A stretch of DNA of 32,000 nt from Akkermansia muciniphila ATCC BAA-835 (GTDB lineage Bacteria > Verrucomicrobiota > Verrucomicrobiia > Verrucomicrobiales > Akkermansiaceae): the NCBI RefSeq assembly GCF_000020225.1, contig NC_010655.1, positions 1,380,001 through 1,412,000 on the forward strand, read 5' to 3'. Made by a program: the position numbers and the translations under genes. Shown here one piece after another: positions 4,552-11,317 of the stretch; position 1 is the stretch's first letter; every line of letters starts with the position of its first letter. The notes below the pieces were generated by a model, which made no database searches, was not told the DNA's origin, and worked only from the letters and a program-made list of their open reading frames with translations.

Positions 4552-5679
4552 ATGATTGACGGAAGTAACGGAGCAGAGCACTTTCTTGACCTGATACGGC
4601 GTTCTCGAAGGGGAAAGTTCAAGATTTACATTGGTATGATGGCCGGAGTAGGCAAGACGTACCGCATGCTGCAGGAAGCCCATGAATTGCTGAATAACGG
4701 CATTGATGTCAGAATCGGTTACGTTGAAACCCACGGGCGGCCCGGGACTGAAGCCATGCTCCGGGGGGTGCCCGTCATCCCGCGTAAAGTGGTTTTTTAC
4801 AAAGGCAGGGAGATTGAAGAAATGGACCTGGACGCGATTCTTCAAGCCCGGCCCGAGTTGGTTATTGTTGACGAACTGGCTCATACCAATGTGGAAGGGA
4901 GCCGCCATCGCAAGAGATGGGAAGACGTGATGGAGCTGCTTGACGCCAATATTAATGTGATTTCCGCGATTAATATCCAGCATATCGAAAGCCTGAGCGG
5001 CGAAGTGAAGGAGATTACGGGGATTGAGATGAAGGAACGGGTTCCCGACAGGATTTTGCAGGAGGCGGACGAAGTGGTGAATATCGACCTGACGTCCGAG
5101 GAATTGATCGGCCGCCTCAAGGCCGGCAAGATTTACCGGCCTGAAAAAATCCAGATTGCCCTGGATAATTTTTTCAGAACGGAAAATATTCTTCAGCTGC
5201 GTGAACTGGCATTGAAGGAAGTTGCTTTCCGAGTGGAGAAAAAAGTGGAAACGGAAGTATTCCCGGCAGTTTCTTCCGCCAGAAGGGAAAAGATTCTGGC
5301 CTGCATCAGCAGCAATGAACAGACGCCCCGGCACATCATCCGAAAAGCATACCGGATTTCCTCGCGTTACAGTACGTCGTTTATCGCCCTTTACGTCCAG
5401 ACGCCAAGGGAGTCCCCCGACCGCATCAATCTGGCGTCCCAGCGCCATTTGCTTAATCATTTCAAGCTGGTGGCCGAACTGGGAGGGACGGTGAAGCAGG
5501 TGAGTGCGGAAGACATACCCCAGGCGATCATCGCAACGTGCAGGGAATATCATATTACGGCTATTTGCATGGGGCATCCCGCATTCAAAATGCCCGGAGC
5601 CATGTTCAAGATACTGGGATATAAACAATTTCTGCGTGTCTTGTCGGAGATGAAGATAGATTTAATCATCATTGCATAA
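4552..5679 (+). CDS. kdpD: Truncated KdpD: KdpD N-terminal (P-loop) domain + Usp-like domain only, with no membrane or histidine-kinase part
   Basis: 375 aa. It carries the KdpD_N hallmarks GMMAGVGKTYRML (P-loop), VDELAHTN and INVISAINIQHIES, followed by a Usp-like C-terminal half. The ORF stops without TM helices or HisKA/HATPase motifs. Confidence 0.85.
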   Translation: MIDGSNGAEHFLDLIRRSRRGKFKIYIGMMAGVGKTYRMLQEAHELLNNGIDVRIGYVETHGRPGTEAMLRGVPVIPRKVVFYKGREIEEMDLDAILQARPELVIVDELAHTNVEGSRHRKRWEDVMELLDANINVISAINIQHIESLSGEVKEITGIEMKERVPDRILQEADEVVNIDLTSEELIGRLKAGKIYRPEKIQIALDNFFRTENILQLRELALKEVAFRVEKKVETEVFPAVSSARREKILACISSNEQTPRHIIRKAYRISSRYSTSFIALYVQTPRESPDRINLASQRHLLNHFKLVAELGGTVKQVSAEDIPQAIIATCREYHITAICMGHPAFKMPGAMFKILGYKQFLRVLSEMKIDLIIIA

Positions 5680-5936
5680 AAAACAGAGGTAAATTTGAAA
5701 ATAAGGCCGGAGCCGGTTCTTTTCACAGGAAGCAGGCGATGAGATTATCATGCTTGTCTTCCCTGAGCGGAACGGATTGTTGCCGGCAGTTTCCATTATA
5801 GCCTCCCCGGGGGCGTTTTCCGTTACCATTCCCGGGCGGGGCGGCCCCTTTTATTTTTTTCCGTCTGGTTGTCTGAAAAACAGTCCAATGTTCCGGTCCG
5901 CCGCATCTCCGGCAGCACCTTTGTTGAAAAAGAATG

Positions 5937-5983
5937 TAGAATTCCCGGAGGAGCAGCATTCTTAAAAGTGAAACGATAACGTT
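5937..5983 (+). promoter_or_regulatory. Conserved upstream element, copy 1 (upstream of the SUMF1-like gene)
   Basis: TAGAATTCCCGGAGGAGCAGCATTCTTAAAAGTGAAACGATAACGTT. It aligns by hand to 7099-7146 with 41 identical positions in 48 columns and one 1-nt gap. A second short shared block, TTATCAT(A/G)AACA, follows 24 nt later (6008-6019) versus 26 nt later in copy 2 (7173-7184). Confidence 0.5.
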
Positions 5984-6031
5984 CCGTCTTCCATAGAGGA
6001 GCGGCGGTTATCATAAACAGAAGGAACAGTT

Positions 6032-7018
6032 ATGAGCATCAATTTGCAAAAAGTCATTATAGCCGTATGTGCGGCCGCAACGGTCAGTGCGGGATTCGCA
6101 GCCCGCACCGAGGGGGCCAAACTGCACCGATTCAGCACTACTATCGAAAAAGAGAGGCCGCAGTTGAATGAAGAAACGAAACGGTTGATTGCTTCCTATC
6201 GCCGGGACCCGTCCGAGGCTAATCGGTCGGCTTTGAGGAAACAGGTCGGGATTAATTACGACAAGGTCCTTGACCGAAAAAAGGCGAAGCTTGAAGAATT
6301 GAAACGAACGGCCCGGCATGCGTCCAAGATACAGGAAATGCAGGAGATCGTGGATGAAATGGTTCAAAACAGGGAAGCGCGCATCGACCAAAGCATGCGG
6401 CGTTTCAGTGATCCGCGATTCAGACCAGGTGCCCGCTATGCAGATGGCGGGTATTTGCCGGTGCTCGGAGCTTCCTGGAATGTATCAATTGCATATACTC
6501 CGGTTACCAATGAGGATTATGCCCAATTCCTGAAGGCAACGGGAAGGAAGGCTCCTAAGGATTGGGATAATGGCGCCATGCCTGCCGGCAAAGGGAGGCA
6601 TCCCGTGGTGAATGTTTCCTATGACGACGCTTCTGCCTATTGCCAATGGTTGTCGCTCCAGGATAGGAAAGCCGTTTATCGCCTGCCGACTGAAGAGGAG
6701 TGGGAGTTTGCCGCCGGGCATATGCCCAAGGATGCGGATTTTAATTGCGGCGAGAGAAACGGGACATCTCCCGTGGACGCCCATGCCGCGACATCCGGCG
6801 CCTGCGGAGCGATTGATATGTGGGGCAATTGCTGGGAATGGACTTCTTCTTCAGTTGAAGTTTCCAAGGCCGTGGCACACGGTAAAACGGTCATGGCGGT
6901 GAAGGGAGGTTCCTGGCGTTCGCCGCGGACGAGCTGCCGAACTGAGCGGAAAGGAGAAGGAAGGGAATCTTCTTTCGCTTTCAGTGATGTCGGTTTCCGG
7001 GTCGTCCGCGAAGGTTGA
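6032..7018 (+). CDS. Secreted SUMF1/FGE-sulfatase-fold domain protein with an N-terminal coiled-coil region (probably not a true formylglycine-generating enzyme)
   Basis: 328 aa. An N-terminal signal-like segment (VIIAVCAAATVSAGFAA) is followed by a charged helical region. The C-terminal part is FGE-sulfatase-like (HPVVNVSYDDASAYCQWLS, YRLPTEEEWEFAA, GNCWEWTSS, KGGSWRS, GFRVV). Confidence 0.85.
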   Translation: MSINLQKVIIAVCAAATVSAGFAARTEGAKLHRFSTTIEKERPQLNEETKRLIASYRRDPSEANRSALRKQVGINYDKVLDRKKAKLEELKRTARHASKIQEMQEIVDEMVQNREARIDQSMRRFSDPRFRPGARYADGGYLPVLGASWNVSIAYTPVTNEDYAQFLKATGRKAPKDWDNGAMPAGKGRHPVVNVSYDDASAYCQWLSLQDRKAVYRLPTEEEWEFAAGHMPKDADFNCGERNGTSPVDAHAATSGACGAIDMWGNCWEWTSSSVEVSKAVAHGKTVMAVKGGSWRSPRTSCRTERKGEGRESSFAFSDVGFRVVREG

Positions 7019-7098
7019 GGGGGGATTCCATGCGTTTCAGTTTCTTACAGGCAATAGAATCTGGCTGGCAGACCTGATGGAAATTCCGGCCGAATTGG

Positions 7099-7146
7099 TA
7101 GATTTCCCTAAGGAACTGCATTCTTGAAAAGTGAAACGATACCGTT
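7099..7146 (+). promoter_or_regulatory. Conserved upstream element, copy 2 (upstream of the small cationic peptide gene)
   Basis: TAGATTTCCCTAAGGAACTGCATTCTTGAAAAGTGAAACGATACCGTT. See copy 1 for the alignment. It ends 31 nt before the ATG at 7178. Confidence 0.5.
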
Positions 7147-7177
7147 TCAGAAAAAATATCAACCCTCATTGATTATC

Positions 7178-7390
7178 ATGAACAAGCTCATTATTCCTGC
7201 AATTATTGGAATATTCGGTCTGGCTCCCGGTACGGTTACTGCCAACGCGGCGGAATCAACAACAGCCTCCTTTTCTGTTCAAATACTGAAAAAGAAACCG
7301 GAGGCGTTGAAGTACGGCCTGAAACACGGCCTCAAGAAAGGTTTGAAACACGGTCTGAAAAAAGGCAGGATAAACGGCGGTAAAAAATAG
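7178..7390 (+). CDS. Small secreted polycationic repeat peptide (70 aa precursor)
   Basis: The ATG at 7178 is preferred over the track's TTG at 7124, which lies inside the conserved upstream element. The product begins with a signal peptide, MNKLIIPAIIGIFGLAPGTVTANA, with an A-x-A type site. The mature part is AESTTASFSVQILKKKPEALKYGLKHGLKKGLKHGLKKGRINGGKK. A strong terminator hairpin lies 17 nt after the stop. Confidence 0.6.
   Translation: MNKLIIPAIIGIFGLAPGTVTANAAESTTASFSVQILKKKPEALKYGLKHGLKKGLKHGLKKGRINGGKK
7316..7363 (+). repeat. In-frame tandem 12-nt repeat x4 encoding (GLK[HK])4 inside the small peptide gene
   Basis: ggcctgaaacac / ggcctcaagaaa / ggtttgaaacac / ggtctgaaaaaa, read directly from the sequence. 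It encodes GLKH-GLKK-GLKH-GLKK. Confidence 0.8.
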
Positions 7391-7407
7391 TCGCCGTCAT
7401 CTTATCT

Positions 7408-7437
7408 GCTGCCGGGCCTGCAGCCCGGCAGCGTTTT
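7408..7437 (+). terminator. Rho-independent terminator of the small peptide gene
   Basis: A perfect 10-bp GC-rich stem (GCTGCCGGGC / GCCCGGCAGC) with the 5-nt loop CTGCA, followed by GTTTT. Confidence 0.7.
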
Positions 7438-7514
7438 CCCATCAATAAGGACGTTTTATCACCTGTAGTGCGGAAACATATCTGACTTCCGTACAGCTTT
7501 GATACATTGCCCAT

Positions 7515-7539
7515 CATGTCTTAAAAAGTCAACATATTG
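7515..7539 (+). promoter_or_regulatory. Possible degenerate third copy of the core upstream element, in front of the MBL-sigma-kinase operon
   Basis: CATGTCTTAAAAAGTCAACATATTG versus the core CATTCTT(G)AAAAGTGAAACGATA(A/C)CG. About 20 matches in about 27 columns, but 4 gaps are needed. The match is weak and could be chance. Confidence 0.25.
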
Positions 7540-7555
7540 AGAAGAAAGGCGTTTT

Positions 7556-8395
7556 ATGGTAAAATGGTTGTTGTGCGGAGCCGCCATGATTTCCGGCATC
7601 GTGATCGCGGCTGAGTCGGAAAATCGTTCATTCCAATTTGGAAATTTTGAGGTGATTGCTGTTCAGGATGCTCTTTCAGCGATGTGGGTCGAATTATTCC
7701 CGGGTATGTCGGAAGAGGAGTTCCTCCGCTTAACCGGAGGCGGGAGGGTTCCTTCTTCCGTGAATGTTTTCCTGTTGAAACGCGGCGACGGAAAAATCAT
7801 TCTGGTGGACGCAGGGAACGGAGGAAAACGGGGCGGGATGCTTCGTAAACTTGAACAGAGCGGCGTTTTTCCGGAGAGCGTCGATTTCATTTTACTCACC
7901 CATATGCACGGCGACCACATCGGAGGATTGCTTGGGAAACATGGCGAAGCCGTTTTTTCCAGAGCCCTCGTCTATGTTTCCATGCCGGAATGGGAATTTT
8001 GGCAAAATGGTACGGTCGGACTACAGGGAAAACAGGTTCGGAAGGTGTTGCATGCTTACGGCAGCCGGGTGAGAACATTCCGGTTTGGAGAAGAAGTTCT
8101 GCCCGGCATCAAGGCTCTTGACGCTTCCGGGCATACACCCGGGCATACCGTTTTTGAGACTGATTCCCTGCTGATTGTCGGAGATTTGCTTCATGCTGCC
8201 GCGCTCCAGATTCCGCGTCCGGAGGTTTGCACGATTTACGATATGAATCCGTTCGGAGCGGTTCAGGCCCGGCGGCGCTTTTATGAGTTTGCGGCTTCTT
8301 CCTCGAAGCCGGTCGCCGGAATGCACCTGCCGTATCCCGGAATCGGCCGGATAGGAAGGAGTGCGGCGGGATATGTCTATCTGCCCGGAAAATGA
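7556..8395 (+). CDS. Secreted MBL-fold metallo-hydrolase
   Basis: 279 aa with an N-terminal signal-like segment (WLLCGAAMISGIVIAAES). It has the metallo-beta-lactamase motifs LLTHMHGDHIGG (HxHxDH) and DASGHTPGH. The stop is only 25 nt before the sigma factor start. Confidence 0.85.
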   Translation: MVKWLLCGAAMISGIVIAAESENRSFQFGNFEVIAVQDALSAMWVELFPGMSEEEFLRLTGGGRVPSSVNVFLLKRGDGKIILVDAGNGGKRGGMLRKLEQSGVFPESVDFILLTHMHGDHIGGLLGKHGEAVFSRALVYVSMPEWEFWQNGTVGLQGKQVRKVLHAYGSRVRTFRFGEEVLPGIKALDASGHTPGHTVFETDSLLIVGDLLHAAALQIPRPEVCTIYDMNPFGAVQARRRFYEFAASSSKPVAGMHLPYPGIGRIGRSAAGYVYLPGK

Positions 8396-8420: not shown

Positions 8421-9017
8421 ATGACGCAAGCAGAAACAGCATGCCCGGATGCCTGGGGAAGCCATTTCCTTGAATACCGGGGAAGGCTTCTTGCCCTGGC
8501 CCGGAGGAATTTGAATCCGGTTCTTGCCCGGCGCGTTTCGGCGGAAGATGTGGTTCAGGAGGCTCTGCTGGCAGCCTGCGGGAAAATGGCTTTTTTTGAA
8601 AACAATCCGGAGATTCCTGTCTATTTCAAACTGCGGACGATTCTGTTCCAGACCCTTACGGCTATGGAAAGGAAGCATCTGCAATGCCTCAAGAGAGACG
8701 CCTGCAGGGAAGTGAATGTGACGGATGACGGCGTGGGGCCCGCTGCCCGGTTGGATTGGAACCGGTTTGCAGATACCGTGACCGGGCCTCTTACCCGTGC
8801 CGTCAGGGCGGATCGTTATACATTGCTCCGGAAAGCGGTCGAGGCGCTGCCCGAAAACGATCGGCAGATTCTTGAACTCCGCCATTTTGACGACATGTCC
8901 AATGCGGATTGTGCCGAAGTCCTGCATATTGGGCCGAAAGCCGCAAGCATCCGCTATGTGCGGGCGCTGCAGCGGCTTCGGAAGCAGCTGATGGAGTTAA
9001 CCGAGTTTCAGCCATGA
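8421..9017 (+). CDS. ECF-type sigma-70 family sigma factor (planctomycete/verrucomicrobial type, kinase-associated)
   Basis: 198 aa. Sigma region 2 (SAEDVVQEALLAA) and region 4 HTH (LPENDRQILELRHFDDMSNADCAEVLHIGPKAASIRYVRALQRLRKQL) are present, with no regions 1 or 3. Its stop overlaps the kinase start (ATGA at 9014-9017). Confidence 0.9.
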   Translation: MTQAETACPDAWGSHFLEYRGRLLALARRNLNPVLARRVSAEDVVQEALLAACGKMAFFENNPEIPVYFKLRTILFQTLTAMERKHLQCLKRDACREVNVTDDGVGPAARLDWNRFADTVTGPLTRAVRADRYTLLRKAVEALPENDRQILELRHFDDMSNADCAEVLHIGPKAASIRYVRALQRLRKQLMELTEFQP

Positions 9018-11317
9018 AGGGGAAGATTTCTCTGGAAGATCTGGTTGAACAATTCCTGGATCAGTGCCGTTCCGGCAATGTTCCCGATATTCAGGATTTT
9101 GCCGGGGCGCATCCGGAGTTTGCTGCCGAGTTGCTGGCTCTTCTTCCGCTTGTGATGGAGATGGAAGATTGGAGCGTTGAAAAAAAACAGGGAATTATGC
9201 CTCCGGTTCACGATTTTCCCGATTTGGAGGGGGACGATTACCGGCTGATTCGGAGACTAGGCAGCGGCGGTATGGGGGTGGTATTTGAAGCGCTGCAATT
9301 GTCCCTCAACCGGAAAGTGGCCCTCAAGCTGTTGTCTCCGTTGCTGCTGCAGGATGCCGCCCAACGCAGCCTGTTTGAGCATGAGGCGCATGTGATTGCC
9401 AGGCTTCATCATCCCAATATTGTCAGAATTTTCAGTGCCGCGTGCCGTCCGGGATGTTGTTATTATGCGATGGAGTTGATAGAAGGCAAGAGTCTGGACG
9501 GATGTGAATTCAGTAATCCGTATGAGATAGCCCGCATTGGCCTCCAGGCCGCCAGGGCGATTGCGTACGCCCACCGCTGCGGCATTCTGCACCGCGATAT
9601 CAAACCGGCGAACCTGTTGCTGGATGAAGCGGGGGAAGTACACGTCAGCGATTTTGGACTTGCTTTTCTGCTTCAGGGGAGAAATGAAGTTATTGAGAAG
9701 GAAGGAGCTCAGAGCGGAACACTGCGGTATATGTCCCCGGAGCGGCTGGTGCATGGAGTCAATACCTTTTCCAGCGATCAGTATGCGTTTGGGGTGACGC
9801 TTTATGAGCTTGTTGCAAAATCCCCGCCGTTTCCGGGGCTAGCTCCTGAAGAATTGATGGAACGGATTTGCAGGGAACCGGTTCCGCCGTTGAAGTGCAG
9901 CGAACCCGACTTGGCCGCGATTATTAACAAGTGCGTCAGTTTCCGTCCGGAGTCGCGCTATCGAAGCATGGACGAACTTTCTGAAGATTTGCTGCATTTT
10001 TTGAATCATGAACCGGTCGGGGCCTCCTCCCCGTCTCCGGCCAGGCGGTTGCAGCTGTGGATGAAACGTAAACCGGCTGTTGCCGTATTGTCTTTGGCTG
10101 CGGCCCTGTGTGCGGCCGCTTTCGTTGTCGCGTTGGGCGCCGGTTATCTGCAGACGGCGTCTGCGCTGAAACTGGCGGAAAACAATGCCGCAGTTGCCGA
10201 TGCGGCTTTGTCACAAGTGTTCACCCGTATTGCGGAGCAGCCCCCTTCACAGAAAAATACGCAGCTGCTTTCAGCTTTGCTGCCCTATTACAGGATGATC
10301 GCCAGAGGAAAAAATCTGCCGGAGTCAAAGGTTTGCGAGGCCAATGCCGTCATCGGGGAATGCGCACTGCGCACCGGGAGTTATGCTCTTGCGGAAGAAG
10401 CGTTCCGCAACATGATGAAATTCAGGAAAGACGCTTTTCCCGTCAACCAGTTGGCGACGGCTTTGAAAAAACAGGGTAAAGATAAAGAGGCAACGGAACT
10501 TTTCCGGCAGGTGGCCGACCGCTTTGCGATGTCGGAGCGGGCGGAGGATCGGTTTGAAACGGTCCGCGCGTTGCTGGCTTTGTCCGGTTCTCCGGAGAGT
10601 GTTGAGCGTTCCCGGGCGTTCGGAATGTTGGAAACATTGTTGGAGGATGATCCTGACCATCCTGAATACCGTTTTCAATACGCACAGCTTTTGGCCGGAA
10701 ATCCCCGCCTTTTCCGGGAGAGGCGCATTCCCGGCATTGAACCGAATGCAGCCGTGCTGCTCCTCCAGCTTGCCGGCGCCTATCCGGAACGGCCGGAATA
10801 CGGCCTGGCGCTGGTAGAGCTGATGCTGAAGAAACTCCGGTATGCCAGGAATTTCCGGGAACATAACCAGAGGGAACTTGCCGATACGGTGAATCTTTCC
10901 GAAAGGCTTCTCGGGCGTTGGCCGAATGATCCGCAGATTATTTCCGGCATGGTCCGGCTGCATGCACGGTATATTGGGGCCCTGCGACGCGAAGGAAAAG
11001 ATGCCTGGGCCCGAAGGGAAAGCGACCGCCTGCAGGGCATCCTGGAAGTTCTTTTTTACAATCCCGAGATTTCCGATGCCGTGAAAGAAAGCCTGATCCG
11101 CCTCCAGCTTCAACGTTTGAAACTGTTACGGCATGACGGCCGGAGTTATGAAGGAGAGGATCTGCGGAAAAAAATCAGCCGGGAGCTGGGCTTTTACCAC
11201 GGACCGATGCTCCGGGTGTTCCGGGAGGAGTTGGATAAAGCCGGGCCGGATGATGAATCCTCCGTCGGGAAGAGTGAAGATTCCATTATTTTTGAACGCA
11301 CCAAGCAAGGTTTGTAA
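9014..11317 (+). CDS. Membrane Ser/Thr protein kinase with a C-terminal extracytoplasmic helical-repeat (TPR-like) domain
   Basis: The ATG at 9014 is preferred because of the ATGA overlap with the sigma stop; the track's start at 8909 lies inside the sigma gene. Hanks kinase motifs are all present: GSGGMG, VALK, HRDIKPANLLL, SDFGLA, GTLRYMSPE. One TM helix follows (AVAVLSLAAALCAAAFVVALGAGYL), then about 380 aa of helical repeats. Confidence 0.9.
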   Translation: MKGKISLEDLVEQFLDQCRSGNVPDIQDFAGAHPEFAAELLALLPLVMEMEDWSVEKKQGIMPPVHDFPDLEGDDYRLIRRLGSGGMGVVFEALQLSLNRKVALKLLSPLLLQDAAQRSLFEHEAHVIARLHHPNIVRIFSAACRPGCCYYAMELIEGKSLDGCEFSNPYEIARIGLQAARAIAYAHRCGILHRDIKPANLLLDEAGEVHVSDFGLAFLLQGRNEVIEKEGAQSGTLRYMSPERLVHGVNTFSSDQYAFGVTLYELVAKSPPFPGLAPEELMERICREPVPPLKCSEPDLAAIINKCVSFRPESRYRSMDELSEDLLHFLNHEPVGASSPSPARRLQLWMKRKPAVAVLSLAAALCAAAFVVALGAGYLQTASALKLAENNAAVADAALSQVFTRIAEQPPSQKNTQLLSALLPYYRMIARGKNLPESKVCEANAVIGECALRTGSYALAEEAFRNMMKFRKDAFPVNQLATALKKQGKDKEATELFRQVADRFAMSERAEDRFETVRALLALSGSPESVERSRAFGMLETLLEDDPDHPEYRFQYAQLLAGNPRLFRERRIPGIEPNAAVLLLQLAGAYPERPEYGLALVELMLKKLRYARNFREHNQRELADTVNLSERLLGRWPNDPQIISGMVRLHARYIGALRREGKDAWARRESDRLQGILEVLFYNPEISDAVKESLIRLQLQRLKLLRHDGRSYEGEDLRKKISRELGFYHGPMLRVFREELDKAGPDDESSVGKSEDSIIFERTKQGL

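Follow-up and report, generated by a model that had tools for sequence, protein, structure and literature searches.

The window analysed here, a stretch of 32,000 nt from Akkermansia muciniphila ATCC BAA-835 (contig NC_010655.1, positions 1,380,001 to 1,412,000, forward strand), holds at 7178-7390 on its plus strand a gene of 70 codons and a stop codon, which we call the mini-gene; its product, the mini-protein, is a small Lys-rich repeat protein. With confidence slightly above even, we interpret the mini-protein as the exported output of an envelope response controlled by a kinase and a sigma factor, working together with a neighbouring protein that resembles formylglycine-generating enzyme (FGE) as partner or substrate, possibly on anionic surfaces of the envelope. 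A classical antimicrobial peptide appears less likely. The order of genes in the window is kdpB, kdpC, an N-terminal fragment of kdpD, the FGE-like gene (6032-7018), the mini-gene, a gene for a hydrolase of the metallo-beta-lactamase (MBL) fold, a gene for an extracytoplasmic function (ECF) sigma factor and a kinase gene.

The mini-gene, its FGE-like neighbour and a shared promoter-like motif

The cassette loci were gathered through FGE-like homologues of 72-79% identity. The order FGE-like gene, mini-gene, (hydrolase gene), sigma gene and kinase gene recurs in L083, L084/85, L086/87, L088 and L091, where the flanking genes are unrelated, and the small open reading frames (ORFs) of the L083-L091 cassettes encode proteins clearly homologous to the mini-protein. 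Mini-proteins from outside Akkermansia, used to seed a scan of metagenomes, yielded 80 loci. An FGE-like gene lies within 300 nt of the mini-gene homologue in 48 of them, on either side and sometimes divergent, and the two genes are often 15-60 nt apart; a sigma gene follows in 8 of the 80 loci, with a kinase gene detected in 5 of the 8. Neither companion is present in 22 of the 80 loci, of which about 7 are low-complexity false matches and the rest encode longer proteins with a signal peptide and GLKNG repeats. Distant members of the family are found beside an FGE-like gene (L092) or directly after a sigma-kinase pair (L094). The pairing in the metagenomic loci indicates that the invariant association is that of the mini-gene with an FGE-fold gene, the sigma factor and kinase being an added layer in cassettes of the type seen in the Planctomycetes-Verrucomicrobia-Chlamydiae (PVC) bacteria. 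The first-pass annotation had called the mini-gene a stand-alone unit; with an FGE-like gene so close in 48 of 80 loci and a motif shared by the two genes in PVC-type cassettes, this description is wrong in functional terms.

The shared motif is bipartite and promoter-like. Upstream of the mini-gene (7097-7127, plus strand) it consists of GGTAGA (7097-7102), 15 nt and GCATTCTTGA (7118-7127), and scores 36 bits with a position weight matrix; the same matrix finds a second copy, TGTAGA-N15-GCATTCTTAA, upstream of the FGE-like gene (5935-5965, plus strand). The matrix was made from 14 unique training sites with identical spacing, scoring 36-50 bits, and the threshold for the window scan was 12 bits, which only these two sites in the 32 kb reach. 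The consensus of the motif family is TGTAGAtTTTnC-N9-GCATTCTTAA, with GTAGA-N15-GCATTCTT as the invariant spacing. A conserved element upstream of the mini-gene had already been claimed, and the claim holds: a second copy of the element (5932-5990) stands ahead of the preceding, FGE-like gene, with 3 matches against 0.02 expected by chance.

In every PVC-type cassette the motif occurs ahead of the FGE-like gene and again ahead of the mini-gene. With its spacing fixed, it precedes one or both of these genes in L083, L084, L086, L088, L091 and L094, and all 14 training sites lie ahead of an FGE-like gene or a mini-gene, or else ahead of the sigma operon of L094 or one divergent operon in L088. 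A further 505 kb of metagenomic loci contain 29 sites that scored at least 18 bits, every one of them in a locus that holds a mini-gene and most about 80 nt upstream of that gene or of a divergent FGE-like gene. A promoter scan found no sigma-70-type promoter upstream of the mini-gene. The motif also goes together with an ECF sigma gene in the vicinity. After dereplication, and counting loci with 2.5 kb or more on each side, the two co-occur in 4 of 4 loci against 0 of 18 (Fisher p = 1.4e-4), and all 18 of the remaining assessable loci have neither; these loci are not phylogenetically independent. We infer from this distribution that the motif is the cognate promoter of the cassette sigma factor, with the FGE-like gene and the mini-gene as its dedicated targets.

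Directly after the -10-like box of the mini-gene a hairpin is predicted, TGAAACG-ATAC-CGTTTCA (7132-7149, plus strand; folding free energy -7.1 kcal/mol, z -3.3). In most related sites a hairpin lies 6-8 nt past this box, usually GGAGC/GCTCC, and a weaker one follows the motif of the FGE-like gene at about 5970-5985. In the RNAalifold consensus 3 of the 5 pairs show compensatory changes, and the covariation term is weak (-0.13). The hairpin is the core of the upstream element and, plausibly, the 5'-terminal stem-loop of the mini-gene mRNA. A protein-binding palindromic operator was thought less likely, as the length of the loop varies from 4 to 8 nt.

Three further observations concern the motif and its surroundings. 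In L094 (2771-3099) motif and hairpin are followed by a hydrophobic ORF of 44 aa, MEIVITAMSITLLIIGFAGIL..., and then by the sigma-kinase pair, a layout that suggests autoregulation and possibly a small membrane peptide in that lineage. On a Lentisphaeria contig (L088, about 4850-4888, minus strand) a third copy, TGTAGA...GCATTCTT, faces a divergent operon made up of a 50-aa ORF and the genes for a 451-aa protein without a Pfam match and a sulfatase-like protein of 776 aa; some lineages may have a larger regulon, with a connection to sulfated glycans. Between the terminator of the mini-gene and the start of the MBL gene the window has a block, CCTGTAGTGCGGAAACATATCTGACTTCCGTACAGCTTTGATA (7461-7500), that is conserved in L083 and L091; it is able to fold into a hairpin (-10 kcal/mol, z -2.2), includes a GGAAAC similar to an ECF -35 box and may be a promoter or regulatory element of the MBL-sigma-kinase genes.

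Sigma factor, kinase and proposed control of the cassette

The ECF-type sigma factor (8421-9017, plus strand; 198 aa) matches the Pfam families Sigma70_r4_2 and r4, and r2 weakly. Its best NCBIfam model is the Planctomycete-type TIGR02984, at 131 bits against a cut-off of 184. The gene of a Hanks-type Ser/Thr kinase (9014-11317, plus strand; domain matches and transmembrane prediction) overlaps its stop codon, and no anti-sigma domain was recognised among the genes of the cassettes. The kinase domain covers residues of about 75-340 and is followed by one transmembrane segment (about 355-377) and some 390 aa with matches to tetratricopeptide repeats (TPR); this TPR-like region is presumably periplasmic. 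The cassette sigma factors are highly conserved, with [ST]-[AP]-E-D-[VI]-V-Q-[ED] in region 2.2 and TGPxT in the linker. A conserved Ser or Thr (S43 in the window protein) stands where DxxD in region 2.2 (residues 40-50) has its first acidic residue, and TGPxT lies between sigma2 and sigma4 at about residues 120-130; both S43 and TGPxT are candidate phospho-acceptor sites.

Kinase-linked ECF sigma factors are known from the ECF43 pairs EcfP/PknT of Vibrio parahaemolyticus and EcfK/PknS of Xanthomonas citri, and also from the groups ECF59-62, ECF217, ECF267 and ECF283 (PMC13147305, PMC7826278). As in those systems, the cassette has a sigma gene followed by the overlapping gene of a transmembrane Hanks-type kinase and no recognised anti-sigma gene, a conserved Ser/Thr opens the acidic motif of region 2.2, and Thr residues in the linker are conserved. 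The hallmark of ECF43 is an uncharged QTTA in region 2.2, where the acidic DxxD is lost (PMC13147305). The window sigma factor, in contrast, keeps E-D-V-V-Q-E, only the first acidic position being replaced, and has TIGR02984 as its best, sub-threshold model. On this comparison the likeness to the polymyxin-responsive EcfP/PknT of Vibrio is one of architecture only. The first-pass annotation had connected the mini-gene with the adjacent sigma factor and kinase and these, in turn, with the Vibrio pair; the first connection is borne out by the co-occurrence of motif and sigma gene, the second is not.

In the sequence of events that we propose, some envelope cue would act on the TPR-like domain behind the transmembrane segment of the kinase, and the kinase would then activate the co-encoded sigma factor. 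The sigma factor would direct RNA polymerase to TGTAGA-N15-GCATTCTTAA ahead of the FGE-like gene and the mini-gene, and the transcript of the latter would be short and monocistronic, with a hairpin at the 5' end and a terminator of its own. The peptide would act in the envelope with the FGE-like protein, as binding partner or substrate, and may also coat anionic envelope surfaces. The predicted topology is in line with this, since the FGE-like protein, the MBL hydrolase and the mini-protein all start with a hydrophobic stretch that resembles a signal and a single transmembrane segment precedes the TPR-like region of the kinase.

Several points weigh against this interpretation. Recognition of the motif by the sigma factor is argued from co-occurrence only, in loci that are not phylogenetically independent. 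No copy of the motif was found ahead of the MBL-sigma-kinase genes in the window, and autoregulation is not evident here. About 18 long loci hold the pair of mini-gene and FGE-like gene with no sigma gene within 6 kb, which means that the pair can work under other regulation. The structure predicted for the mini-protein with AlphaFold2 has a low mean confidence (pLDDT 58). Finally, the FGE-like protein keeps one of the two catalytic cysteines of true FGEs and the mini-protein is free of Cys, and no enzymatic relation between them can be named.

The mini-protein could instead be a feedback modulator, a sigma-induced peptide that binds the TPR-like domain of the kinase and lowers or raises the activity of the pathway. 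C-terminal tails are often bound by TPR domains, the kinase offers a TPR-like region of about 390 aa after its transmembrane segment, and the extreme C-terminus of the mini-protein, NGx[IV]NGxKK, is the best-conserved part of that protein. In L094, L098-L100, L102, L113 and L169 the mini-gene lies directly before or after the sigma-kinase pair and no FGE-like gene was detected in the flanking sequence covered. Small periplasmic regulators encoded beside sensor kinases are an established class (PMC12714742, PMC4160245). The analogues would be CpxP for CpxA and DbfQ for DbfS (DbfRS), likewise small Sec-signal proteins beside a membrane sensor kinase (PMC12714742); like cpxP, the mini-gene is apparently induced by the pathway itself. 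The mini-protein, however, does not resemble CpxP, Spy or any other named family in sequence, and unlike CpxP and DbfQ it carries a low-complexity GxxxG/Lys repeat of variable length, with a repeat number of 3 to 16 that would be unusual for a specific ligand. Its gene has an FGE-fold gene, not the sensor, as the most constant neighbour, and in 46 of the 80 loci it is paired with an FGE-like gene while no sigma or kinase gene was detected in the flanks covered. We regard a role in feedback as unlikely, and keep to an exported output that works with the FGE-like protein.

Layouts differ among the loci in other respects. In L098 (6001-6867), and also in L099, tandem paralogues of the mini-gene encoding 88 and 178 aa stand ahead of the sigma-kinase pair, and no FGE-like gene was found within 6 kb of them. 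The MBL-fold hydrolase of the window (7556-8395, plus strand), which has an N-terminal hydrophobic signal-like segment, is an accessory found in only some cassettes: its gene is present in L083 and L091 and comes after the kinase gene in L088, and L084 and L086 have no MBL gene and carry an alpha/beta-hydrolase-like gene after the kinase gene. Among the matches listed in a species-level genome scan its closest relatives are from Victivallis (58-59% identity), with no Akkermansia genome listed, and its best NCBIfam model, an AidB-type lactonase, scores far below the cut-off. On the other side of the cassette, the KdpD homologue (4552-5679; 375 aa) has the N-terminal KdpD sensor domain, and no histidine-kinase domain was detected in it. 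These upstream kdp genes correspond to AMUC_RS06140-06155 of the type strain, which were reported to be down-regulated by ox-bile (PMC7671984).

Reading frame, composition and repeat of the mini-protein

The mini-protein reads MNKLIIPAIIGIFGLAPGTVTANA|AESTTASFSVQILKKKPEALKYGLKHGLKKGLKHGLKKGRINGGKK, where the bar marks the predicted cleavage site. The first 24 codons (7178-7249) encode the signal peptide, MNKLIIPAIIGIFGLAPGTVTANA, which begins with MNK, continues with the hydrophobic LIIPAIIGIFGLAPGTV and ends in TANA|AE, with A-N-A at positions -3 to -1 and the predicted cut after A24. In a rule-based check it agrees with the layout of n-, h- and c-regions and the -3/-1 rule for Sec export and signal peptidase I, and the hydrophobic segment reaches 1.9 in a Kyte-Doolittle window of 19 residues. 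Orthologues retain an MKK start, the hydrophobic core and an AxA-type cleavage site. As the protein has no Cys, it is not a lipoprotein. The mature part (46 aa; 7250-7390 with the stop codon) is characterised by its composition (K12, R1, H2, E2, D0, G7; net charge +11, isoelectric point 10.5) and by the conserved C-terminal GRINGGKK. Codon 42 (7298-7300) encodes Glu here (KKKPEALKY) and Lys in the other alleles listed (KKKPKALKY), so the protein of this strain is slightly less cationic, +11 against +13 in those alleles. The ORF of 70 codons, the Sec-type signal peptide and the charge counts that had been proposed earlier all agree with these results, the counts to the residue.

The exact mini-protein is indexed in 723 blocks of a public assembly collection. 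An exhaustive HMMER search of 1.84 billion representatives gave 22 relatives, and a separate profile search (E<=1e-5) at least 196 clusters. All relatives inspected have a signal peptide, a variable linker, a (G-[LAM]-K-x)n region with 4-16 GxxxG steps and a C-terminal NG[QKR][IV]NGxKK, and the invariant columns of the family are K49, G51, G55, G59, G63, G67 and K70. No significant match was obtained in Pfam (E<=0.01), NCBIfam or PADLOC; among the PADLOC anti-phage models none was matched by the mini-protein, the FGE-like protein or the sigma factor, and the kinase gave a generic kinase domain only. Neither Pfam nor NCBIfam has a model of the family, which is known only as "hypothetical".

Could the unit be a small non-coding RNA, or the ORF a chance one that is not translated? 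ATG 7178 has no Shine-Dalgarno sequence, and the frameshifted forms P0013 and P0015-P0019 exist. The absence of a Shine-Dalgarno sequence is, however, common to 14 of the 19 window genes checked, and the orthologues in L084, L086 and L088 have GGAGG ahead of the ATG; the frameshifted forms are single-member clusters, against 98 and 203 members in the intact ones, the exception being the representative of P0001 (34 members), with a frameshift at its 3' end. The frame, the signal peptide and the repeat persist over a range of identity from 97% to about 33%, with indels that stay in frame: alleles within the species have 3 units (66 aa) or 4 units (70 aa), and relatives differ in length by whole 4-aa units. 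The mini-gene has a ratio of non-synonymous to synonymous changes (dN/dS) of 0.11-0.32, and its FGE-like neighbour one of 0.09-0.12. No Rfam covariance model matched at its gathering score in the window, nor at E<=1 within 5600-7600. That the ORF is untranslated is thus very improbable; as far as sequence analysis can show, its translation is established, and the frame conservation that the first-pass annotation had asked for is what was found.

The start codon in the databases differs from ours. Near-identical proteins carry the name "hypothetical protein [Akkermansia muciniphila]" in NCBI models of 88 or 96 aa, the former beginning at an upstream TTG (7124-7126). This TTG falls within the -10-like box GCATTCTTGA, and the residues gained from it, MKSETIPFQKKYQPSLII, are not shared by the orthologue P0140, which was called with an unrelated extension; the TTG was rejected as a start on these grounds. 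ATG 7178 lines up with the MKK starts of most orthologues and is taken as the start, and the annotated TTG is probably wrong, which would make the database protein 18 residues too long. The expectation that automated annotation misses or mis-starts such ORFs is probably borne out for the start and not for the omission, NCBI having the gene as a hypothetical protein.

Four 12-nt units (7316-7363, plus strand), GGCCTGAAACAC / GGCCTCAAGAAA / GGTTTGAAACAC / GGTCTGAAAAAA, encode GLKH-GLKK-GLKH-GLKK, a tetrapeptide repeat of the GxxxG type, just as the (GLK[HK])4 from a 4x12-nt tandem repeat had been described. Tandem Repeats Finder (TRF) detects the repeat at a period of 12 (3.9 copies, 68% matches) and again at a period of 24 (86% matches). 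Codons for G, L and K vary among the units at synonymous sites only, so the repeat is better conserved in the protein than in the DNA. The ORF ends in an A7 run (GGT AAA AAA TAG, 7380-7390). In the P0001 representative a -1 frameshift at this run adds 19-20 residues and reads through the terminator; either the site is prone to slippage or the assembly is in error. The terminator-like element (7407-7437, plus strand) consists of a GC-rich hairpin with an 11-bp stem (7407-7433; -23.7 kcal/mol, z -4.3) followed by UUUU (7434-7437), and its position is kept in L083 and L091 with a different stem sequence. A generic terminator scan has no entry for it because the T-run is short; the hairpin is strong, and "textbook" was a slightly generous word for the whole.

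Runs of G-x-x-x-G with period 4 and predicted helical structure also occur in Yae1/Lto1 (deca-GX3, PF09811) and in FliH/YscL. For some relatives of the mini-protein a PF09811 hit is on record as precomputed or comes up faintly, and the Joint Genome Institute (JGI) labels one relative as FliH. Yae1 and FliH, in contrast to the mini-protein, are cytoplasmic, have other domains and lack a signal peptide, and the mini-protein scores 18.7 bits with the NCBIfam FliH model against a cut-off of 293. As far as these comparisons go, the resemblance is one of repeat type and not of ancestry.

AlphaFold2, with an alignment of 14 sequences, places a single helix at residues 41-67 (pLDDT about 62-74). At a period of 4, Gly, Leu and Lys trace separate stripes that wind slowly around this helix, and the core of the mini-protein is predicted to be a single amphipathic helix, in which Gly and Leu form a stripe and Lys forms a face. 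Short, Lys-rich, Gly-containing and potentially amphipathic helices are also typical of magainin, pleurocidin and the designed KLAKLAK/GLK peptides, and the mini-protein might be a cationic amphipathic effector that leaves the cell and kills competitors or binds polyanions such as mucin, lipopolysaccharide or DNA. The hydrophobic moment of the repeat (0.33-0.53) is comparable to that of magainin (0.51), and all 16 tabulated family members are cationic (+5 to +13, isoelectric point 9.7-12), the A. muciniphila protein being among the most charged. The motif of L088 that faces an operon with a sulfatase-like gene, with glycoside-hydrolase genes nearby, hints at a connection to sulfated glycans. 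Yet the mean Eisenberg hydrophobicity of the repeat is negative (-0.1 to -0.46) and that of the controls magainin (+0.2) and melittin (+0.57) positive, and Leu makes up one in four residues (about 25%); antimicrobial peptides combine a net positive charge, which is present here, with a hydrophobic face of about 40-60% hydrophobic residues and a mean near or above 0, which is not. Many relatives have Asp or Glu in every second repeat. Inspection of the called genes in the loci covered revealed none of the exporter, immunity or processing genes that accompany bacteriocins, a Sec signal crosses only the inner membrane of a diderm cell, and the constant neighbour is an FGE-fold protein and not a transporter. 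The mini-protein thus differs from magainin-type peptides in being much less hydrophobic, encoded in a signalling cassette and paired with an FGE-fold protein. The antimicrobial reading, which had been put forward from composition, is weakened by these results, and a secreted effector of this kind seems improbable to us beside a peptide that stays in the envelope with its FGE-like partner.

The FGE-like partner and wider meaning

The partner gene (6032-7018, plus strand) encodes an exported FGE-like protein of 328 aa (Pfam PF03781, 2.6e-33) with a signal-like hydrophobic start, a conserved N-terminal helical domain and a C-terminal FGE-sulfatase domain of C-type-lectin-like fold. AlphaFold2 and Foldseek match this fold to ToxD, CarF, human and bacterial FGE, PvdO, PorK, TvpA and Mtd; Foldseek found no match for the N-terminal helical domain. 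The homologues aligned have 61-79% identity, and the few source names among them span Planctomycetia, Lentisphaeria and Limisphaerales. Invariant stretches include GHMPKDADFNCGE, WGNCWEWT and RTSCRTE. True FGEs have two catalytic cysteines in C-x-x-x-x-C, act on the substrate motif C-x-P-x-R and require O2 for their chemistry. The partner resembles them in its PF03781 match and in the Foldseek matches to ToxD, CarF, FGE, PvdO and PorK, and differs in its extra N-terminal helical domain and signal peptide, in its anaerobic hosts and in the C-terminal motif GGSWxSPRTSCRTE, which has one Cys and a Ser at the position of the first cysteine. A classical relation of FGE and substrate was excluded, the partner having a single Cys in RTSCRTE and the mini-protein neither Cys nor CxPxR.

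The mini-protein might nevertheless be a multi-site substrate or precursor that the FGE-like protein, perhaps together with the MBL or alpha/beta hydrolases, modifies or cuts in the periplasm. Its identical repeated units resemble multi-core precursors, the two genes are tightly paired in either order, hydrolases are frequent among the accessory genes, and the invariant polar residues of the FGE-like protein, with a dN/dS of about 0.1, speak more for an enzyme than for a scaffold. Against these stand the lack of any chemistry that could be proposed for a peptide without Cys or CxPxR and an enzyme in which one FGE catalytic cysteine is replaced, the need of FGE chemistry for O2 when the hosts are gut and rumen anaerobes, and the occurrence of FGE-fold proteins as pure binding or structural modules (PorK, Mtd, TvpA). 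We consider a precursor role of this kind quite unlikely. For the exported output of the kinase and sigma factor that we favour, the FGE-like protein may be partner or modifier alike.

ECF sigma factors with Hanks-type kinases are already known, as are small periplasmic proteins attached to envelope sensors. In the papers searched on kinase-linked ECF sigma factors, on Akkermansia sigma factors and on Planctomycetes and formylglycine, no description was found of the cassette, of the FGE-fold/GLKx pairing, of the TGTAGA-N15-GCATTCTTAA motif or of the peptide. It is tempting to go further and to speculate on an envelope system of two components, so far unrecognised, that PVC bacteria and other gut and rumen anaerobes would build from the GLKx-repeat peptide and the exported FGE-fold protein, and in which the FGE-fold domain would bind or modify the Lys/Gly units and a kinase-activated sigma factor would switch the system on. 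This wider proposal is doubtful at present; if true, its product would be a new modified cationic peptide or a polyanion-binding surface coat, and could act on mucin or on the host in the case of Akkermansia.

For the more limited interpretation, that of an exported output of the envelope response, the meaning lies closer at hand. A. muciniphila is a leading candidate among therapeutic gut bacteria, and several of its exported proteins have reported effects on the host. An isolated "hypothetical protein" would here become one of two dedicated outputs in a unit that also comprises a promoter motif, a sigma factor and a sensor kinase, and an orphan family of kinase-linked ECF sigma factors of PVC bacteria would gain a predicted regulon and motif. 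The analysis points to an uncharacterised, highly conserved partnership of an FGE-fold protein and a GxxxG/Lys repeat peptide.

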